Assembly (NCBI GenBank): GCA_000004695.1
Contig: CM000151.3
Location: 6,016,001-6,080,000, forward strand
Reading direction: 5' to 3'
DNA length: 64,000 bases
Origin: Dictyostelium discoideum
Lineage: Eukaryota
Below the pieces are notes generated by a model. The model ran no database searches and had not been told where the DNA came from. It was given only the letters and a program-made list of their open reading frames with translations. Positions 29,706 through 43,755 of the stretch are shown here, one piece after another (positions within the stretch are counted from its first letter, which is position 1; each line of letters starts with the position of its first letter). Both the position numbers and the translations under genes were made by a program.

Positions 29706-31953
29706 ATGACAATATGTCAACCAATTCCATGTGGTGGATCCTATTTTTGGAATATAGTTGAACCATATAAAAATGATGAATATGTATTTGTAATGCAAAG
29801 TTATAATGGACCATTTAGGTGGAAATCAGAAGAATATAGAATCGTTTTAATGTGTGGTCCAAATTCAAATGGCTACATTATAGCCACATCAACTTTATTT
29901 AGTGAAATCTTTTCAAATTGGGAGATTATCACAACAATTTATAAAGAAAAGATTGAAAAAACAGGTCTTAGTCATTTCTCTGACACTTTTTTAATACAAC
30001 TATATAAGAAATTAGCTAAAAAATTATCACAAGTTAATTCTCCAATCTTTACAGAAGAGGAACAAAATATTCAACCACCACCACAACCACAACTACCACC
30101 TCAACAACCACCACCACCACCTCAAATACAAGAATCACAACCAATCCAAGAACAAATTGAACAAATTATATTACCAACGACATTAGAATTTCCAAAAAGT
30201 AGAGATAATGAAGAAATTAAAATTATTAAAAAAAGAAAAATCGTGGCATTATTTAAAACATTATATAGAGTTGATGCAATGACAATTATTGAAAGGGATT
30301 ATAGTTCATCAAGTCAATGGATAGAATGGGTTGATGAGTCTACAGGAATGAGACCAATTCATGTCGCTGTCGAAAGAATGAATGTTCAATTGGTTAAATA
30401 TTTAATTGAACGTAAAGCAGATGTAAATATAAAAGATAATCAAGGTTGGTCACCATTACATTTCTCATCATTTGCTGGTAGTTTAGATATTTGTCAAATT
30501 CTATTAGATCAAGGTAATGCTGCTGTTTTAACAATTTCAAAAGATGGTACATTACCATTACATTATTTAATTAGACATTGTTATTCAATAAATGTACCAT
30601 CTTCATCATCAAATAGTAATAATAATAAAGATAATAATAATAATAATTATAAAGATAATAATAAGTTTAATAGTAATTTATCAATTAATTATAATAATGG
30701 TGGAGATTGTAATAATTTAACATTAAAACAAAAACAGGAAAGTAATAATAAATTATTTTCAATTTTATCATTATTACTTAGTAAAGGTACACCAATAAAT
30801 GCAAAAACTATACGTGGTGAAACTGCATTACATCGTGCATGTTATTATGGTTCAGCACAGTCTGTTAAATTTTTACATCAAAATGGTGCAGATGTAAATG
30901 TTCAAAATTCACGTGGTGAAACACCACTTTATTTCGCAGTTGTAAGTCGTCAACGTGAGATTGTAAAACTTTTAATCGAATATGGTAGTGATGTTAATAT
31001 TGGTGGTGAACGTTCTGCTTTAAAAGCTGCTGATAAAACAAACCAAAATGAAATTTATTATTTTTTAGCTGGTTTTTCTGATGAAAAATCTGTATCTGAT
31101 TCAAAAAGAGATTATTATAATAATAATGATGAAAATGATAGCAATAATAATAATAATAATTATAATGATGAAAATGATAATATTCATAGACATAATCAAA
31201 ATAATCAAGGTAATAATCAAAATCATTCAATGGATTGTTGTTCAAAGATTGAAAATGGTCAAGAATGTAGTTGTGGTGATTTAAGTAATACAGCACATCC
31301 ATTCTATCCACATGTTTTCGTTTTCATTGATTTTCCTGCTGGTACAACTCATTGCTCCTATTGTAAATACTTATTATGGGGTATTAGAAAACAAGGTTTC
31401 CAATGTGAAGTTTGCTCATACATTGTTCATTCAAGATGTAAAAGACAAGCAACATTAACAAATACTTGTGGTATACCTGATTCAAAAGAAACTATTTCTT
31501 CTTCAGTTGTAAATGATTTCTTAACAAAATCAAGAGACCAAAATATTAATAATAATAATGAGGAAGAAGGTGTAGAAGTAGTAGAAGAAGATCATCATCA
31601 TAATAACATCAATAATAACATCAATAATAATAATAAAAGATCACCACAAAGAAAACAAACAATAAGACAACCATTACATAAACAAAATATTAATAGAAAA
31701 AGATTAGAAAGTTTATATAATCATTTCATAACATTGGATAAAGAAAAGAAAGGTTCAATTTTAAAAAAAGATTTTGAAAAATGTTTAGGTCCAATCATTA
31801 ATAGCTCAGAATCATTATCAAATGCTTTATTTTTAGGTTTTAATCCAAAAAAACATGATAAAATGAGTTATGTTGAATTTTTAACTGGTGTTTCTGTATT
31901 ACAAAATTCAACTTTTGATAAACAAATTCAATGTAATTTATATAATTTTTATG

Positions 31954-31985
<32 letters not shown>

Positions 31986-32491
31986 TTAATTTATTAATTT
32001 TATTATTATTATAGTTTCATTTAAAATGCTAGCAGGTGAAAAAGGTTATATTACAGTGGAAGAGTTTTTATCAATTTTAGAATCAATCTATTCTTCATTA
32101 ACAAATTTAACTATTGTAACATGTAATCCACAAGCATTTCTAAAAAGATTATTCCCTGAATTTTCATTTAGTTATCAAAGAAAACAAAAACTATTATTAC
32201 AACAACAACAACAATTACAGCAGCAACAACAACAACAACAACAACAGCAGCAACAAAAATCATCATGGTCCTCAACTTCACCTTCACCTTCATCAACTAC
32301 TAATTCTCTTAGAAATAGTTTAAGACTATCAAGAGCTATAGATAATAATAATAATCATAATAATCATAACCATAATCATAATAATAGTAATATTAACAAT
32401 GAAGATGATTTAAATCTTGATTCAGATTCAGACTCTGATTCATTCCCAACACCATCAACCTCTCCACTTTTATTTAAAATTGGTATAAAAA

Positions 32492-32531
<40 letters not shown>

Positions 32532-32545
32532 GCAACAACAACAGC

Positions 32546-32583
<38 letters not shown>

Positions 32584-34557
32584 GAACAACAGCAACAACA
32601 ACAACAAGAAAACCAACAAATAATAAAAGATGAGAATGAAACAGTAGAAAATCAATCACAAGAGATAAAGCAAAAAGAAGATGAAAATCAAAAAGAAGTT
32701 GAAAATCAAAAACAAGATTTAAAAAATCAAAAAGAAGAAAAAGAAGAAGAGGAAGAAATAAAGGAACAAAGAAAATTTGAAACCAAAAATGATAATTTTG
32801 TTCAAGTTAATACAAAGAAATCAGTTAGAGGTAGTATATTTTTTGCACCATTAGATTCACATGAAAAAATTAATAATATTTCAAGTATTGGTAATCATAG
32901 ATCTTTAATTAGAAATAGTAGTAGTAGTGTATTAGATAATAATAGTAATAATAGTAATAATAATAATAATAATAAAAACAATAATGAATCTACAGCAACA
33001 CCAAATACAACTAATTCAACAACACCAATTACATCAGCAACAACATCAACATCATCATCTCCATCATCATCATATAAAAGTCAATCATTACCAGATTTAC
33101 CATCACATATACCAAAAACACCAACAAAATCATCAATTATAAATAATAATAATAATACATCAAAAACAATAACAACTAAATCATCATCATCATTTGAAAA
33201 TGGTTTAAATAATAGTGGAATTGATAATAATTATATTAGTAAAAAAGAAAAAATTGAAAATGATAAAGTTTTTCAATTAAATGGTAGAATTTATTTTAAA
33301 GAATTTAAACAAGCATTATCAGATAATTTATATTTTGTAAAGAGTTTAGGTTTAGTTAATCATTATGAAAATCCATTGATTAGAGAAACTGAGGGTAATG
33401 ATGGTCTATTGGTTAATCATTCATCGAATTGGGTAACATCACAAGGTAAAGATGTATCAATTGGTCATATAAATTGGGAGTTAATTCAATATATTATGAT
33501 TGGTATTAGAAGGTCTGCAGGTGAAGCCATCGTACTAACCAATAGAGCAACATTGAAGCCTAAAGATTTTGAAATGGTTGTTGAATTCAAATATGATGGT
33601 TGGACATTCAAAGATCATTACCCATTAGCATTCAAAAAGATTAGAGAAAGATTAGAAATTGATCCAAAGATGTTTATGTTTTCCTTGGGTCCTGAAAGAG
33701 TGTTTGGTAATTTACTATTAGGCAATCTTTCAGTGTTGAGTGAAATGAACTCTAGTGGTAAAAGTGGCAGTGTTTTCTTTAGATCGACAGAGGGTGATTA
33801 TTTAATTAAAACCATTCCAACACATGAAGAATCAATATTGAAAGCGGTTTTACCAACTTATGTACAGCATTTACAAAAATATCCAAATAGTTTATTAATA
33901 AAGATATTGGGTTGTTATACACTTCAAATAAAGGGTAAAGCAGAGATGAAATTCTTGGTCATGAATAACCTTTTCTTCACTCCATTACCATTGTCTGAGA
34001 AGTACGATTTGAAAGGCTCTGTCATCAATAGAAAAGTTGACAAGAATGATTTACTCTTACCTGATATCGCTTTAAAAGATCAAGAATTTCATAGAATACT
34101 CGATATTGGCCCAGAGTTTAAAGCACCATTATTAGAACAAATCGAACATGATACAATGTTTTTAGAATCTCATAATATCTGTGATTATAGTTTATTGGTT
34201 GGCATTCATACTATAGATGAAAATTCACCATTGGCTCTTTCGGATGATGATGATCCTGATCTTTCAAATGTGGGTGGTGTTAAAAGAGACACTTGGAAAG
34301 TATTGGAAGAAGAATTCTTTAAAAAAACTAGTGGTAAAATCTCTTTATTTCAAAAGAATTTTGGTGGTATCCTTTCAAAAAATAAAAAAGAAGTTTATTT
34401 CATCGCTATCATCGATACTTTTACCGCTTGGGATTGGTGGAAAAAGTCTGAACGTGCCTTAAAATTCTTGGGTAATGATTTAGATAAAATATCTGCTGTT
34501 AATCCAACTGATTATCGAAAAAGATTTCAACATTATGTTTCAAAAATTGTTCAATAA
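29706..34557 (+). CDS. Large multidomain phosphatidylinositol-phosphate kinase: N-terminal unknown domain, ankyrin repeats, C1 (DAG/phorbol-ester-type) zinc finger, NCS-like EF-hand pair, poly-Q/N linkers, C-terminal PIP5K catalytic domain; 2 exons
   Basis: Exon 1 is 29706-31932 (donor gtaatt at 31933). Intron of 82 nt contains poly(A)30. Exon 2 is 32015-34557. Ankyrin motifs (PIHVAVERMNVQLVKYLIERKADVNIKDNQGWSPLHF...). C1 domain (HPFYPHVFVFIDFPAGTTHCSYCKYLLWGIRKQGFQCEVCSYIVHSRCK). EF-hand region spans the splice (FDKQIQ|FSFKMLAGEKGYITVEEF). PIPK motifs (GKSGSVFF, DYSLLVGIH, IIDTFTAWDW). The alternative donor at 31982 is rejected by frame. Confidence 0.8.
32488..32630. repeat. (CAA)n/(CAG) coding microsatellite (poly-Gln about 45) in PIPK exon 2
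   Basis: Direct inspection. Confidence 0.9.
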
Positions 34558-35212: not shown

Positions 35213-35875
35213 ATGTGTGGAATTAGTGGTTGGGTAGATTGGTCAAATAAAAATGATTTATTAAAAGAAGTTGCAATAATTCAAAGAATGAATCAAAGTG
35301 TTTATCATAGAGGACCAGAGGAAGGTGGAATTTGGAAATCAAGTGATGCATTATTTGGACATCGTAGATTATGTGTTATTGATGCAGCAGGTGGTAAACA
35401 ACCAATGATTTTTAAAAAAGGTGATAAATCAATTGTATTATGTTTTAATGGGGAATTATATAATTTTCAAGATTTAAGAAATGAATTAATTTCTTTGGGT
35501 AATCAATTTAAAAGTCATTCTGATACTGAAGTAATTCTAATGTCATATATTCAATGGGGTGAACAATGTGTTAAAAAGTTTAACGGAATGTTTGCAGTTG
35601 CAATCTTTGATGAAGAAAACCAAAAATTATTCCTTGCAAGAGATCATCTTGGTGTTAAACCATTATTCTATTGTACTAGAGGTGATTCCATTCTTTTTGG
35701 TTCAGAAATGAAAGTTTTACTAGCAAATAATAAATTGGTTAAAGCAGAAGTTGATAAAGATGGTATTGCTCAATTATTTTATTTGGGTGCATTTCGTACA
35801 CCAGATATTGGTTGTATATTTAAAGATATACATGAAGTATCACCTGGACATTCAATTACATTTAATAAATCATTA

Positions 35876-35939
<64 letters not shown>

Positions 35940-37150
35940 TCTCTTTCACTACAACTGGTCAAAAAGAATATTGGAATTTAAAATGTTTACCACATACTGA
36001 TGATGTTCATCAAACAAGTAAAAAACTTAGAGGATTAATTGAAGGTGCACTTTCAAGACAATTAATATCAGATGTACCAATTACATTTTTATTATCTGGT
36101 GGTTTATCATCTAGTGTATTGGTTTCATTGGCATCATCACTATCGAAATCATCATTTCCTGAACCATGTCCAATTAATGAAACTAGTATTTTGAAAACTT
36201 TTTCATGTGAATTTGAAAATGATGATAAAGATTATAAAGAAGAAATTGAAGGACCAAAAAAACCATGGGTTGAAAAGGTTGTTAAAAATGTTCAAAGTAA
36301 TCATATTTCCACACAATGTAATGTTGATAATTTAATAAATACAATTTCATTACCAATGAAAGCAAGAGATCTTCCAAGTTTTTCAAAATGGGAAACACCA
36401 TTAAGACTAATGCTAAACAAAGTAAAAGATCATGGTGTGGTTTTAATCTCTGATGAAGGTTCTGATGAAATATTCTCTGGTTATGATTGGTTCAAAAAAC
36501 AATCTTCTTTAAATATGGATAGATTACCATGGATTGGCAATATCTATAATAATATCAATCATTTCTTAAAGGATCAAATATTAGAACAAGTTGATTTTAT
36601 GAAATATGGTGAGCAAGTCTATCAAAAAGCCATTAAAAACATGCCAGTGCTACAAGGTGAGGATGAAACTCAAGTAAAACAAAGAGTTGCCTCTTGGTTA
36701 TTTATTAAATACTTTTTAGTATATATGCTTGAACGTGAAGATAGAACATCAATGTCTCAATCATTAGAAGTTCGTGTACCTTATTGTGATTATAATTTGG
36801 TTGAATATTGTTGGAACATACCATACAATATGAAATCAATTGATGATATTGAAAAAGGTATTTTACGTCGTTCAATGGCTCAACAATTACCAAAAGATAT
36901 TTTATATCATACAAAGGATAATTTCCCATTATCAGTTAAAGATACAAATTTCTTTATTTCAGTTTGTAGTCTATTGGAAATTGAATTAAATAATCCATCC
37001 TCACCAATTTTAAATTTTATTAAAAAGGAATCAATTATGGAAATTATTAAAAATAAATATGATGAAAAATATCAAACCTATCAAAATCAAAGTGTTATTG
37101 AACATTTACTTCAAGTAAATACATGGATCATTGATTATAATGTTAAATTT

Positions 37151-37156
<6 letters not shown>
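35213..37156 (+). CDS. Asparagine synthetase-like glutamine amidotransferase of the bacterial AsnO/LtsA type (class II Ntn Cys-2 GATase plus PP-loop ATP pyrophosphatase), intronless
   Basis: 647-aa ORF. Opens MCGISGWVDW (like Bacillus AsnO MCGITGWVDF) and carries the SGGLSSS PP-loop. Host-like AT-rich codons and a poly-N19 insert argue it is a native gene, not contamination. Confidence 0.85.
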
Positions 37157-40869: not shown

Positions 40870-42918
40870 CTAAACAGTTTGAATCTTTTTAAATTTTGAT
40901 CTTGATGGATCATATTTTTTTCCAGTTCTTCTAGTTCTATCTTCTTCATAGGAAGCATAATTACCTTCATGAACGATTACTTGACCATCACCTTCAAATG
41001 CAATAATATGAGTACAAAGACGATCTAAAAAGTAACGATCATGACTAATGATAACAGCACAACCTGGATAATCTTCAATGGCAGTTTCTAAATTACGTAA
41101 TACATCAACATCCAAATCATTGGTAGGTTCATCCAATAATAAAAGATTACAACCTCTTTTAATCATTTTTGCAATATGAACACGATTACGTTCACCACCA
41201 GATAGAGAGCCAATGAATTTATCTTGTTCTGGACCACGGAAATTGAATTGAGAGATGTATTCTCTTACGTGAATTTTATAATTGTCACCCATAACTACAT
41301 CATCGGAGCCATCGGCAACCTCTTCATAGATGGTTTTCTCGTCGTCCATTGAAGCACGTGATTGTGCGACGAACCCCATACGAACGGTTTCACCCACTCT
41401 AATTGAACCGGTCAATGGTTTCAATTCACCAGTCATGATTCTAAAAAGTGTTGATTTACCTGTACCATTTGCACCAATGATACCAACGATTGAACCAGGT
41501 TCAATATCGATATTTAAATTTTTAAATAAAGTTCTACCATCAAATTCCATACTAATATCTTTGGCTTCAAATACTACTCTACCTAAACGTGGACAAGGTG
41601 GAATTGAAATTCTACCTGGTTCTCTGAATTTCTCTGGTGCACTTGCCACCAATTCATTGTATTTATCAATACGAACTTTATTCTTTTTAGTTTGAGCTTT
41701 AACACCACCTTTAAGATACTCCAATTCCTTTTTAATGGCTTTCTTTCTTCCCTCCTCCTTTTTATTCTCCATTGAGAGACGTTGCTCCTTTTGTAATAAC
41801 CAACCCGAGTAATTTCCTTTGAATGGTATGAGTGAACCACGATCAACCTCTAAAATCCAATTGGCGACATTATCTAAAAAGTAACGGTCATGAGTGATTG
41901 CAACCACTGTACCACGGTAGTCATGCAAGAAACGTTCTAACCATGCAACACTTTCTGCATCCAAATGATTTGTTGGTTCATCCAATAGTAATACATCAGG
42001 ATTTGAAATTAGTAAACGTGCCAATGCAACTCTACGTCTTTCACCACCTGACAATGTTGTTACATTACTATCACTTGGTGGGCAATTTAATGCGTCGATT
42101 GCAATTGCAATCTTTCTCTTTAAATCCCAAAGTCTTTCTTCCTCAATAATATCAGCCAATTCATCTCTTCTCTTTTCCAATTGTTTTCTTTCTTGTTTAG
42201 TTAACTCTTCATCTTCATCCTCTAATCTTTCCTCGATCTCTTCATGTTCATCCAATATCTCCTTCTTTTCTGCTACACCATCGAAAATATTCTCCTCAAC
42301 AGTTTTATCTGCATCCAACTCTGGTTCTTGATGAAGGAATCCAACTGTTAATCCTTTTGAATATAATACTTGTCCATCATGTTCCGTATCTTCTTGTGAT
42401 AAAATACGCATAAATGATGATTTACCACTACCATTGGTACCAAGTAAACCAATCTTTGATCCTTCTAAAAATGAAAGTGATATATCTTTTAATAAAATTT
42501 TACCATCATCTAATCTTTTATTAACTCCAACCATTGATAATATAACTTTATCTGTTTGATGTTTATCTGCTCCTGTTTTTTTTTCATTTCCTTTTTTTTT
42601 TGCTTTTTTAAAAAAATAAATTAATATTTAAAATTTTAAAATATTATATATTATATGTATGTGTGAGTGATTTTTAATAAATATTTACTTACTTGAATAT
42701 TGTTGAATTAAACCATATGATAAATTTTTGTTTAATTTTAAATTTTCATTTTTATTATTATTATTATTTAATTGAATTGAATTAACTATACTTTCTTTAT
42801 TATTTAAAGTAGTAATTGAAGTTATTGATTTATTTACATTTGTAATATAACAATATCCATTCTTTGTTGAATTAAGCAAAGATAATGGTTTTCTTAATTT
42901 TGAAAATGATGAAATCAT
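40870..42918 (-). CDS. ABCF-family ATPase of bacterial EttA (YjjK) type, two ABC domains and no TMD, with an N-terminal presequence-like exon; 2 exons
   Basis: Exon 1 is 42918-42693 (MISSFSKLRKPLSLLNS... basic and hydroxylated with no acidic residues, donor gtaagt). Intron is 120 nt. Exon 2 is 42572-40870. Exon 2 has blocks near-identical to E. coli EttA (LLLDEPTNHLDAESVAWLERFLHDYRGTVVAITHDRYFLDNVANWILEVDRG, LSGGERRRVALARLL, LLLDEPTNDLD). Homology starts before the first Met of exon 2 (KVILSMVGV aligns with EttA FVYTMHRV), which supports the splice. Possibly abcF4. Confidence 0.85.
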
Positions 42919-43161: not shown

Positions 43162-43427
43162 TTAATTTTTAGTTGATTCATTTGATTCTAAGATTACATT
43201 TGAAATTGCATAATCAGTATCATGAGAAATTGCTAGATGAATTTTATTAATACCCAATTCTTTGAAATATGATTCAGTTGTTTCTAATAAATTTACATAT
43301 GGACGTCCATTTGATTCATTTAAAATTTGAATATTTTGAAAATTTAATTTTGAACGATCTTGATTTCCAATTGCTTTATAAATTGATTCCTTTGCTGCCC
43401 ATCTACCTGCTAAATATTCAAATCCTC

Positions 43428-43476
<49 letters not shown>

Positions 43477-43755
43477 TAATTCACTATTATCGTTATCATC
43501 AATACTTTCTGTTATTGATGCTGTTGGATTTAGTGATTTAAATATTGATATTTCAACTTCATTAAATGCTCTTTTTAAAAATTTATCACCATGTCTTGGA
43601 ATTATCATTAAAAAAAAAAAAAAAATTAATAAAAAAAGGTGGAAAATGATAATAAAATATTTTAATTATTAATTATATTAAAAATACCTTTTAAATGATG
43701 ATTCTAATCTTGATATCTTTACAATATCATTTCCAATACCAAATATCTTATTCAT
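43162..43755 (-). CDS. Holo-[acyl-carrier-protein] synthase (AcpS-type 4'-phosphopantetheinyl transferase), 2 exons
   Basis: Exon 1 is 43755-43688 (MNKIFGIGNDIVKISRLESSFK, donor gtattt). Intron is 93 nt. Exon 2 is 43594-43162 (RHGDKFLKRAF...LAGRWAAKESIYKAIG...NGRPYV...LAISHDTDYAISNVILES). Colinear with bacterial AcpS, with a poly-N18 insertion. Confidence 0.75.

Follow-up and report, generated by a model that had tools for sequence, protein, structure and literature searches.

In human asparagine synthetase (ASNS), the residues Asp-261, Asp-294, and Gly-363 line a single pocket for the nucleotide and pyrophosphate (PPi), and the variants E364A, E364Q, and D367A are inactive (PMC6748925). Cryo-electron microscopy has placed Asp-261 in contact with both of the Mg2+ ions that bridge adenosine monophosphate (AMP) and PPi (bioRxiv 10.1101/2025.10.16.682859). 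In Bacillus subtilis, the enzymes AsnO, AsnH, and AsnB are each reported to complement an Escherichia coli asparagine auxotroph (Yoshida 1999, as cited in PMC5485061), and asnO is a sporulation gene of the mother cell (PMC517825). The subject of this study is a gene of the social amoeba Dictyostelium discoideum that resembles the AsnO type and in which the equivalents of all three residues of the human pocket have been replaced. It lies at positions 35213 to 37156 of a 64,000-nucleotide stretch of DNA (GenBank assembly GCA_000004695.1, contig CM000151.3, positions 6,016,001 to 6,080,000), which is called the window below. The gene is on the forward (+) strand, as are all of the features within it, and positions are counted from the first letter of the window.

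The gene and its protein family

The gene is one unbroken open reading frame (ORF) that runs from ATG to TAA, encodes 647 amino acids beginning with MCGISGWVDW, and contains no intron. Since 647 codons stay open in DNA of 22-27% GC, the frame is real and not a product of chance; the window itself is about 22% GC and carries coding tracts for poly-Gln and poly-Asn. The locus is present verbatim on a 4.9-Mb contig of the NCBI assembly GCA_054883475.1, where the frame is also a called gene whose length fits its span without any intron. Of the three adjoining gene models, one lies upstream (an ankyrin-C1-PIP5K gene) and two, both small genes, lie downstream; each carries about 85-110 nucleotides of intron, as judged from the length of the called product against the span of the gene. 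A first-pass annotation of the window had described a complete MCGISGWVDW frame, free of introns among intron-bearing neighbors, with an N-terminus like that of Bacillus proteins. All of this holds: the frame matches GATase_7 and Asn_synthase end to end, the difference in introns is seen against the three adjoining models, and the Bacillaceae homologues begin with MCGIAGWIDW or MCGIAGWVDW. A miscalled start codon and an intron hidden inside the ORF were also considered and were rejected, the alignment with homologues being continuous save for a poly-Asn tract and one insertion of 17 residues.

The protein has two domains. The first is a class-II, or N-terminal nucleophile (Ntn), glutaminase domain (residues 2-215, positions 35216-35857), with Pfam matches to GATase_7 and GATase_6 at residues 35-171 (GATase_7, 1e-46). 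The ATG TGT start (M-C-G-I) aligns Cys2 (35216-35218) with the Cys of relatives. The residues for glutamine binding and the oxyanion (Arg51 and Arg52 of HRRL, Asn79-Gly80-Glu81, and Asp104 of SDTE) are all present and invariant among the orthologues. The second is an Asn_synthase domain of the PP-loop adenosine triphosphate (ATP) pyrophosphatase type (residues 271-639, positions 36023-37129), which matches PF00733 with 273 bits (cutoff 21; 7e-81).

Among the NCBIfam profiles, TIGR01536 (asn_synth_AEB) is matched over residues 2-571 with 436.9 bits against a cutoff of 267.1. The protein stays below the cutoff of NF006949, the AsnB type that takes in E. coli AsnB and eukaryotic ASNS (271.5 bits against 499, in three fragments). 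It also stays below those for the XrtA/PEP-CTERM amidotransferase (TIGR03108; 316 against 817 bits), the N-acetylglutaminylglutamine amidotransferase (TIGR03104; 296 against 570 bits), and the lasso-peptide cyclase (NF033535; 186 against 525 bits). Of the sequences in the Protein Data Bank (PDB), the best match is TsnB9 (7ylz; 7e-93), and E. coli AsnB (5e-38, 134 bits) and human ASNS (4e-30, 108 bits) trail it by a wide margin.

An AlphaFold2 model built from an alignment of 69 sequences has a predicted local distance difference test (pLDDT) score of 89.3 and a predicted template-modeling (TM) score of 0.90. Low confidence is confined to a poly-Asn loop at residues 228-240 (pLDDT below 50), the insertion at about 311-327, and residues 343-345. 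Foldseek places TsnB9 first (TM 0.84/0.94; root-mean-square deviation [rmsd] 2.3 Å), then ASNS and AsnB (0.62/0.79; rmsd about 6 Å), and then the beta-lactam and carbapenam synthetases (about 0.55/0.71). By profile and by fold, the protein is a member of the asparagine synthase family and is not of the AsnB/ASNS type.

A remodeled nucleotide and metal site

The PP-loop at residues 295-301 (36095-36115) reads SGGLSSS, so the canonical SGGxDS motif, with the Asp that is a Mg2+ ligand, is absent. The whole orthogroup has SGGL(S/A)SS at this place (SGGLASS in D. purpureum), compared to SGG(L/I/V)DS in every other sequence aligned with it. Further along, Lys349 (36257-36259) stands where the relatives have an invariant Asp, and in the motif SDEGSDE at residues 413-419 (36449-36469), Asp414 stands in place of an invariant Gly. 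Pairwise alignment with human ASNS pairs Ser299 with Asp-261, Lys349 with Asp-294, and Asp414 with Gly-363. All six orthologues have Ser or Ala at 299, Lys at 349, and Asp at 414, compared to Asp, Asp, and Gly in all of the 201 close relatives, of which 198 are bacterial and 3 are paralogues. In a wider set of 147 diverse representatives, position 299 is Asp in 139, position 349 is Asp in 130 (Asp or Glu in 137, never Lys), and position 414 is Gly in 140 and never Asp. The combination of Ser, Lys, and Asp is found in this orthogroup only, among about 350 sampled sequences. This loss of the PP-loop Asp together with D349K and G414D is new, and it formed no part of the first-pass annotation.

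The changes reach beyond the PP-loop. In LEREDR (residues 506-511, 36728-36745), K509E reverses the charge next to the invariant Arg508, and in His566-Thr-Lys568 (36908-36916), an Arg that is invariant in the family has become His. Altogether, all six orthologues are changed at 18 positions where the 201 relatives show at least 97% invariance, among them D299S/A, D349K, G414D, K509E, R566H, and S396P; the changed positions number 6 of 56 in the N-terminal domain and 12 of 73 in the C-terminal domain. When the 198 bacterial sequences alone set the standard, 127 sites reach an invariance of at least 97%; of these, 21 differ in the window protein, 6-13 in the paralogues, 25 in TsnB9, and 0.8 on average in the bacteria themselves.

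Other residues of the synthetase site have been kept. These are the Ser295-Gly-Gly of the loop, Ser413 (a ribose contact in ASNS), Glu415, Asp418, Arg508, and Lys568. Asp418, Glu415, and Lys568, which are kept in all six orthologues, correspond to human Asp-367 (the second Mg ligand), Glu-364, and the catalytic Lys-466 (Lys-449 in E. coli). Position 299 varies between Ser and Ala, compared to the invariant Lys349 and Asp414, which suggests that the latter two, and not 299, are the residues that now matter.

In the wider family, it appears to be the other active site that is often lost. About a quarter of the 147 representatives have no N-terminal Cys (25 have Ser, 5 Gly, 4 Ala, and 1 Val) and keep the PP-loop, so relatives with a dead glutaminase appear to be common. 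Loss of the PP-loop Asp is rare, with 8 of the 147 representatives, including one alignment gap.

Relatives and bacterial origin

A similarity search over 5.8 billion proteins found the nearest relatives in orthologues from D. cf. discoideum, D. citrinum, D. dimigraforme, D. firmibasis, and D. purpureum, at 92-71% identity. These are followed by two D. purpureum paralogues, P0006 and P0016, at about 45% (45-46% for P0006). The best matches from outside the amoebae, among those listed, are proteins of about 607 amino acids named “asparagine synthase (glutamine-hydrolyzing)” from Bacillaceae and other Bacillales (41-44% identity, 550-585 bits), and after them come other Bacillota and Ktedonobacteria. 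A profile made from the slowly evolving paralogues (P0006, P0016, and a EukProt sequence, P0055) recovered Bacillaceae proteins at 53-57% identity and no additional eukaryotic members; P0006 by itself is 55-57% identical to the Bacillaceae proteins.

A HMMER scan over 1.84 billion cluster representatives returned 18,306 relatives at E<1e-30 and, among the representatives with cluster names looked up, added one eukaryotic member, the D. purpureum protein P0263. The only eukaryotic relatives recognized were thus from Dictyostelium and the one EukProt entry, among the best 120-150 matches listed and about 25 clusters checked by name, in a survey in which many cluster representatives carried no name. 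P0263 (DICPUDRAFT_150759) is a fourth and very divergent D. purpureum member, for which no orthologue in another species was found in the searches made. It lacks the nucleophile Cys (it starts with MGITG), carries R51T and N79D, and has a synthetase site in which SGGxD, Asp, and Gly still take the canonical form, the reverse of the pattern of loss in the window orthogroup.

Neighbor-joining trees (605 columns, 200 bootstraps) gather all of the eukaryotic sequences into one clade, at 87% with 9 of 9 sequences and at 80% with 10 of 10. In these two trees, the clade adjoins Bacillaceae (64% and 56%) within a group of Bacillales (76% and 62%); neither TsnB9 nor E. coli AsnB belongs to the AsnO-like clade. 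The stem branch that leads to the window orthogroup is long. Taken by themselves, the three slow paralogues form one clade at 81% but join Bacillaceae at only 48%. The closest relatives are therefore those expected for an AsnO-type protein. Eukaryotic sequences that form a clade inside a bacterial radiation, with a restricted distribution among eukaryotes and moderate support for the exact donor, also bear out the suggestion of horizontal gene transfer (HGT) from bacteria made in the first-pass annotation. From these comparisons, we regard a bacterial AsnO-like origin of the dictyostelid gene as firm. A donor within Bacillales is graded as only probable, because the placement of the window orthogroup is unstable when the paralogues are left out and because of the 48% with which the slow paralogues join Bacillaceae. 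A literature search for the gene, as a candidate for HGT or otherwise described, found no paper.

The first-pass annotation had named the protein as of the AsnO/LtsA type and as distinct from the canonical eukaryotic AsnB type. The distinction stands, given the scores of 108 bits with ASNS and 134 bits with E. coli AsnB compared to 550-585 bits with Bacillaceae proteins and the failure to reach the AsnB cutoff; the protein neither groups with the eukaryotic AsnB enzymes nor turns out to be a standard asns product. In the joint name, the AsnO half is sustained by the affinity with Bacillales. One cluster of relatives includes a member named “Asparagine synthetase 3,” which we take to be how UniProt names AsnO of B. 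subtilis. The basis for the AsnO label is the names in that cluster together with length, B. subtilis AsnO itself lying outside the sample. A scan of contigs seeded with the protein P0009 gave 27 Bacillota loci, none of them from B. subtilis. The LtsA half of the name is not supported, since LtsA has 56% identity with B. subtilis AsnB compared to 31% with AsnO (PMC5485061). This point is drawn from the literature, as no named sequence of LtsA or B. subtilis AsnB is in the tree, and ten longer family representatives suspected of being of the AsnB/LtsA type bore no informative names.

Integration into the host genome

The gene has the composition of its host. Its GC content is 0.27, or 0.12 at third codon positions (GC3), and its relative synonymous codon usage correlates at 0.98 with that of the neighboring genes, compared to 0.68 with that of the Bacillaceae homologues. 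Its surroundings, with a PIP5K gene upstream and two small genes and an ABCF gene downstream, are kept in D. firmibasis, D. citrinum, and D. dimigraforme. The ORF is intact in all six orthologues. The ratio of nonsynonymous to synonymous substitution rates (dN/dS) by the Nei-Gojobori method (NG86) is 0.11-0.19 overall; taken by domain, it is 0.08-0.18 for the glutaminase and 0.14-0.17 for the synthetase. The window-type copy is the only family member found in the annotated proteins of the D. discoideum species complex.

The introns of relatives add a history to this. No intron is annotated in three of the four orthologues of the D. discoideum complex, and the fourth, P0001 of D. cf. discoideum, reads through to the same stop codon. 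The deposited model of P0001 (L008:6001-8103) runs on past the true C-terminus, and this extension is spurious; in the genome, the ORF closes with NVKFV and a stop codon as in the window, and the model splices over that stop codon and a stretch that is A-rich and codes for poly-Lys. The D. purpureum orthologue, P0005, has a 79-nucleotide GT-AG intron between its Leu-Glu and Arg-Glu-Asp-Arg codons, at a site that corresponds to the junction of codons 507 and 508 of the window gene. In the paralogue P0006, an intron of 67 nucleotides lies 2 nucleotides away from that position, inside the homologous Arg codon. The near coincidence of the two introns supports a single origin, and together with the intronless orthologues of the complex, it implies that the intron was later lost. 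The first-pass annotation had read the gene as host-like in its codons and as a long-time resident rather than a contaminant. Both statements are confirmed by host composition, synteny, purifying selection, and the spliceosomal introns that the orthologue and the paralogues in D. purpureum contain, which are the marks of a domesticated transfer.

The D. purpureum paralogue P0016 lies about 0.9 kb from a large, divergently oriented polyketide synthase gene with KS-AT-DH-MT-KR domains; the two genes occupy L007:1-4106 (minus strand) and L007:5001-7065 (plus strand) on GL870957.1. This may hint at a role for P0016 in secondary metabolism, or the two may be neighbors by chance; Dictyostelium genomes hold many polyketide synthase genes.

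What the protein may do

The reading that we favor, with modest confidence, is that the gene encodes a functional, domesticated, and neofunctionalized amidotransferase that came from a bacterial AsnO-type gene and has an altered nucleotide and metal site. Most likely, a dictyostelid ancestor acquired the gene once from Bacillota, probably from a Bacillales-like donor, and the gene was then duplicated; the window copy would belong to the most diverged of the paralogue lineages. The data themselves show an Ntn glutaminase site with all of its residues in place, a PP-loop domain with a confident fold, and purifying selection acting on both. Removal of the first Met would expose Cys2 as the N-terminal nucleophile, at which glutamine would be hydrolyzed. 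The ammonia would then pass from the glutaminase site to the C-terminal domain, in which a carboxylate acceptor would be activated with ATP and amidated. The Mg-ATP/PPi site would have been rebuilt by the change of the PP-loop Asp to Ser or Ala, of the second Asp to Lys, and of the Gly to Asp, with alterations on the acceptor side as well (K509E, R566H, and S396P). Because the Mg ligand is lost and residues on the acceptor side have changed charge, the protein is probably not a housekeeping asparagine synthetase. Its acceptor is probably no longer aspartate for that purpose, and its handling of metal and nucleotide is probably unlike that of every sampled relative.

Several points weigh against this reading. 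On its face, loss of the PP-loop Asp would predict loss of adenylation, and nothing at position 299 takes the place of the ligand, since the residue varies between Ser and Ala among the orthologues. Residues 341-350, which include Lys349, are of low confidence in the AlphaFold2 model, and both the enzyme activity and its acceptor are what we infer from the sequence. On the side of origin, the sister relation with Bacillales has only 48-64% bootstrap support, and the monophyly of the eukaryotes could be inflated by long-branch attraction. The window orthogroup, taken without the paralogues, falls back to the base of the AsnO-like clade, with a Bacillales neighbor in only 34 of 167 replicates, and B. 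subtilis AsnO is absent from the sampled sequences.

A more specific proposal can be made for an active enzyme with a noncanonical PP-loop. In it, Asp414 and Lys349 would neutralize the charge of ATP and PPi in a Lys-assisted, one-metal, or otherwise noncanonical reaction, with an acceptor that is particular to Dictyostelium and takes the place of aspartate, such as a developmental or secondary-metabolite carboxylate. Spelled out to this degree, the proposal is a tentative one, and we would not expect it to hold in full.

One could also consider that the protein is an ordinary auxiliary glutamine-dependent asparagine synthetase, such as B. subtilis AsnO is taken to be, in which the substitutions are tolerated or compensate for each other and the substrate is the same. 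We consider this unlikely. It would agree with a score above the TIGR01536 cutoff, which is that of the “asparagine synthase (glutamine-hydrolyzing)” equivalog, with the rescue of the E. coli auxotroph by AsnO, AsnH, and AsnB, and with the retention of Lys568 and of the residues that match Glu-364 and Asp-367, by which human ASNS holds the aspartyl moiety. It is difficult to reconcile with a PP-loop that has lost its Mg-ligand Asp while two other invariant residues lining the site have changed, a state unmatched in about 350 relatives, or with changes of charge beside catalytic residues (K509E and R566H). In addition, the 21 of 127 family-invariant sites that differ are similar in number to those of TsnB9, which has another substrate. 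Dictyostelium is believed to have a canonical eukaryotic asns gene besides. A literature search on canonical asns in this genome returned nothing relevant, the genome itself not having been searched for it.

The opposite possibility, to which we give the same low standing, is a half-pseudoenzyme in which the synthetase is dead and the protein serves as a glutaminase, either stand-alone or regulated, or else as a noncatalytic binding or regulatory protein that keeps the fold. The equivalent of the Mg2+-binding Asp-261 is Ser here and Ala in D. purpureum, as if unconstrained between two residues that are not ligands, and D349K and G414D might form a salt bridge that fills the nucleotide and PPi site. 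The residues of the glutaminase, in addition, are conserved in full. Against this, constraint on the C-terminal domain matches that on the N-terminal one (dN/dS 0.14-0.17 compared to 0.08-0.18). The Ser-Gly-Gly, Ser413, Glu415, Asp418, Arg508, and Lys568, for which a dead site would have no use, are kept in six species as well, which is a weak argument at 71-92% identity.

With regard to origin, the single transfer that we prefer has to be set against several separate transfers from bacteria, or an old eukaryotic gene that was lost nearly everywhere else. Either would be a considerable surprise. P0006 shares 55-57% identity with Bacillaceae proteins but 46% with the window protein, long eukaryotic branches might group by long-branch attraction, and the orthogroup is unstable in its placement when taken alone. 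On the other hand, the eukaryotes are monophyletic at 80-87% with the long branches included and still at 81% for the three slow paralogues alone, the introns of P0005 and P0006 nearly coincide, and no eukaryotes outside Dictyostelium and the one EukProt sequence were recognized in the matches and clusters surveyed by name. Finally, bacterial contamination, an assembly artifact, or a decaying pseudogene, for which nothing speaks beyond the bacterial affinity of the protein, can be dismissed, given a 4.9-Mb contig with intron-containing eukaryotic neighbors, a GC3 of 0.12, the (AAT)21 tract, synteny in three other species, and an ORF that is intact in six species with a dN/dS of about 0.15.

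Insertions and neighboring genes

The window protein carries two inserted segments. The first is a pure (AAT)21 microsatellite (35876-35938) that codes for 21 Asn residues (222-242) in the loop between the domains, the loop in which the AlphaFold2 model falls below a pLDDT of 50. The length of the tract varies in every species compared; for example, the sequence at this site is NNDNDNN in D. cf. discoideum, the other orthologues have a short tract or lack it, and D. purpureum has none. From these comparisons, the tract is a recent, species-specific, and fast-evolving expansion in a disordered loop. The first-pass annotation had counted 19 Asn residues, two fewer than there are, and had taken them as a sign of long residence. 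The tract is recent, with NNDNDNN at the same site in the closest species, and so it is no evidence of age. The second segment is an orthogroup-specific insertion of 17 residues, SKSSFPEPCPINETSIL (311-327, positions 36143-36193), which follows the PP-loop helix and is modeled with a pLDDT of about 69-79.

The upstream neighbor (29706-34557, plus strand) encodes a protein of about 1590 amino acids with ankyrin repeats, a C1 domain, PIP5K, and very long poly-Gln tracts, and a short intron near 31986-32025 divides the gene into two ORFs. Some 4-6 kb downstream of the amidotransferase gene lie genes, both on the minus strand, for an ABCF-type ATPase (40873-42534) and a 4'-phosphopantetheinyl transferase of the ACPS superfamily (43165-43608). 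These two are also found at the syntenic loci of D. firmibasis and D. citrinum, with no link to the amidotransferase established. A tRNA scan of the 64-kb window found none.

Significance

If this reading is right, a domesticated gene of bacterial, probably Bacillota, origin is added to those of the social amoebae, and one whose history of gained and lost introns, duplication, and differential loss can be followed from species to species. The gene is also a natural experiment on the PP-loop, as the Mg2+-coordinating Asp and two neighboring invariant residues have been replaced and purifying selection has been kept on both domains in six orthologues out to D. purpureum. Two outcomes could follow: adenylation with a different arrangement of metal and charge, or an Ntn glutaminase kept on a nucleotide-binding fold that has been put to another use. 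Since the D. discoideum complex appears to retain only the derived copy, a knockout in this tractable model could reveal the function directly.

Comparison with known systems

The family, the fold, and the presence of bacterial genes in Dictyostelium are already known, and the protein is not a categorically new system. Its closest known counterpart is the Bacillales AsnO type, with which it shares the two-domain architecture, the class of length, an N-terminus of the form MCGI[AS]GW[IV]DW, the best sequence matches, and an adjoining branch in the tree. It differs from that type in the lost PP-loop Asp, the 21 of 127 changed invariant sites, the 17-residue insertion, the poly-Asn tract, and the codons of a eukaryotic host. 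The Bacillaceae homologues are stand-alone genes that are not in operons. The B. gaemokensis homologue is flanked by genes for a POT transporter, a LysR regulator, and a glycosyltransferase, and the one in Rossellomorea by genes for a sigma factor, a STAS protein, and an S9 peptidase; the two sets of flanks have nothing in common that would give a clue to function.

The diaminopimelate amidotransferases, namely LtsA, AsnB1, and B. subtilis AsnB, which act on meso-diaminopimelate (mDAP), are glutamine-dependent members of the same superfamily and set a precedent for carboxylates other than aspartate. They belong to a different subfamily, however, and the peptidoglycan whose mDAP they amidate is absent in Dictyostelium. 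The first-pass annotation had drawn on cell-wall amidation by AsnO/LtsA enzymes as an analogy. Amidation of mDAP is lost when asnB is deleted, and deletion of asnO leaves the muropeptide profile unchanged (PMC5485061), which makes this a function of AsnB/LtsA and not of AsnO; the analogy therefore does not carry over to the window protein.

E. coli AsnB and human ASNS share with the window protein the fold and the catalytic logic of an Ntn-Cys glutaminase, an ammonia tunnel, and an adenylating PP-loop domain, and the equivalents of Glu-364, Asp-367, Arg-403, and Lys-466 of the human enzyme are conserved. Unlike them, the window protein has replaced Asp-261, Asp-294, and Gly-363; the aligned parts are about 31% identical, at 108-134 bits. 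The beta-lactam and carbapenam synthetases also share the fold (TM 0.55/0.71) and are an example of neofunctionalization in the AsnB family. They differ in their inactive glutaminase domains, in forming an amide within one molecule, and in an identity of 13-15%, whereas the glutaminase site of the window protein is intact.

The closest solved structure, by sequence as well as fold, is TsnB9 (PDB 7ylz), a hydroxyamidotransferase that takes part in forming the hydroxamate of trichostatin A. It has changed a similar number of invariant sites (25 compared to 21). It is 33% identical to the window protein, lies outside the AsnO-like clade, and keeps SGGLDSS, the Asp equivalent to position 349, and the Gly of SGE. 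TsnB9 shows that this branch is not confined to aspartate as the acceptor or to ammonia as the nitrogen donor.

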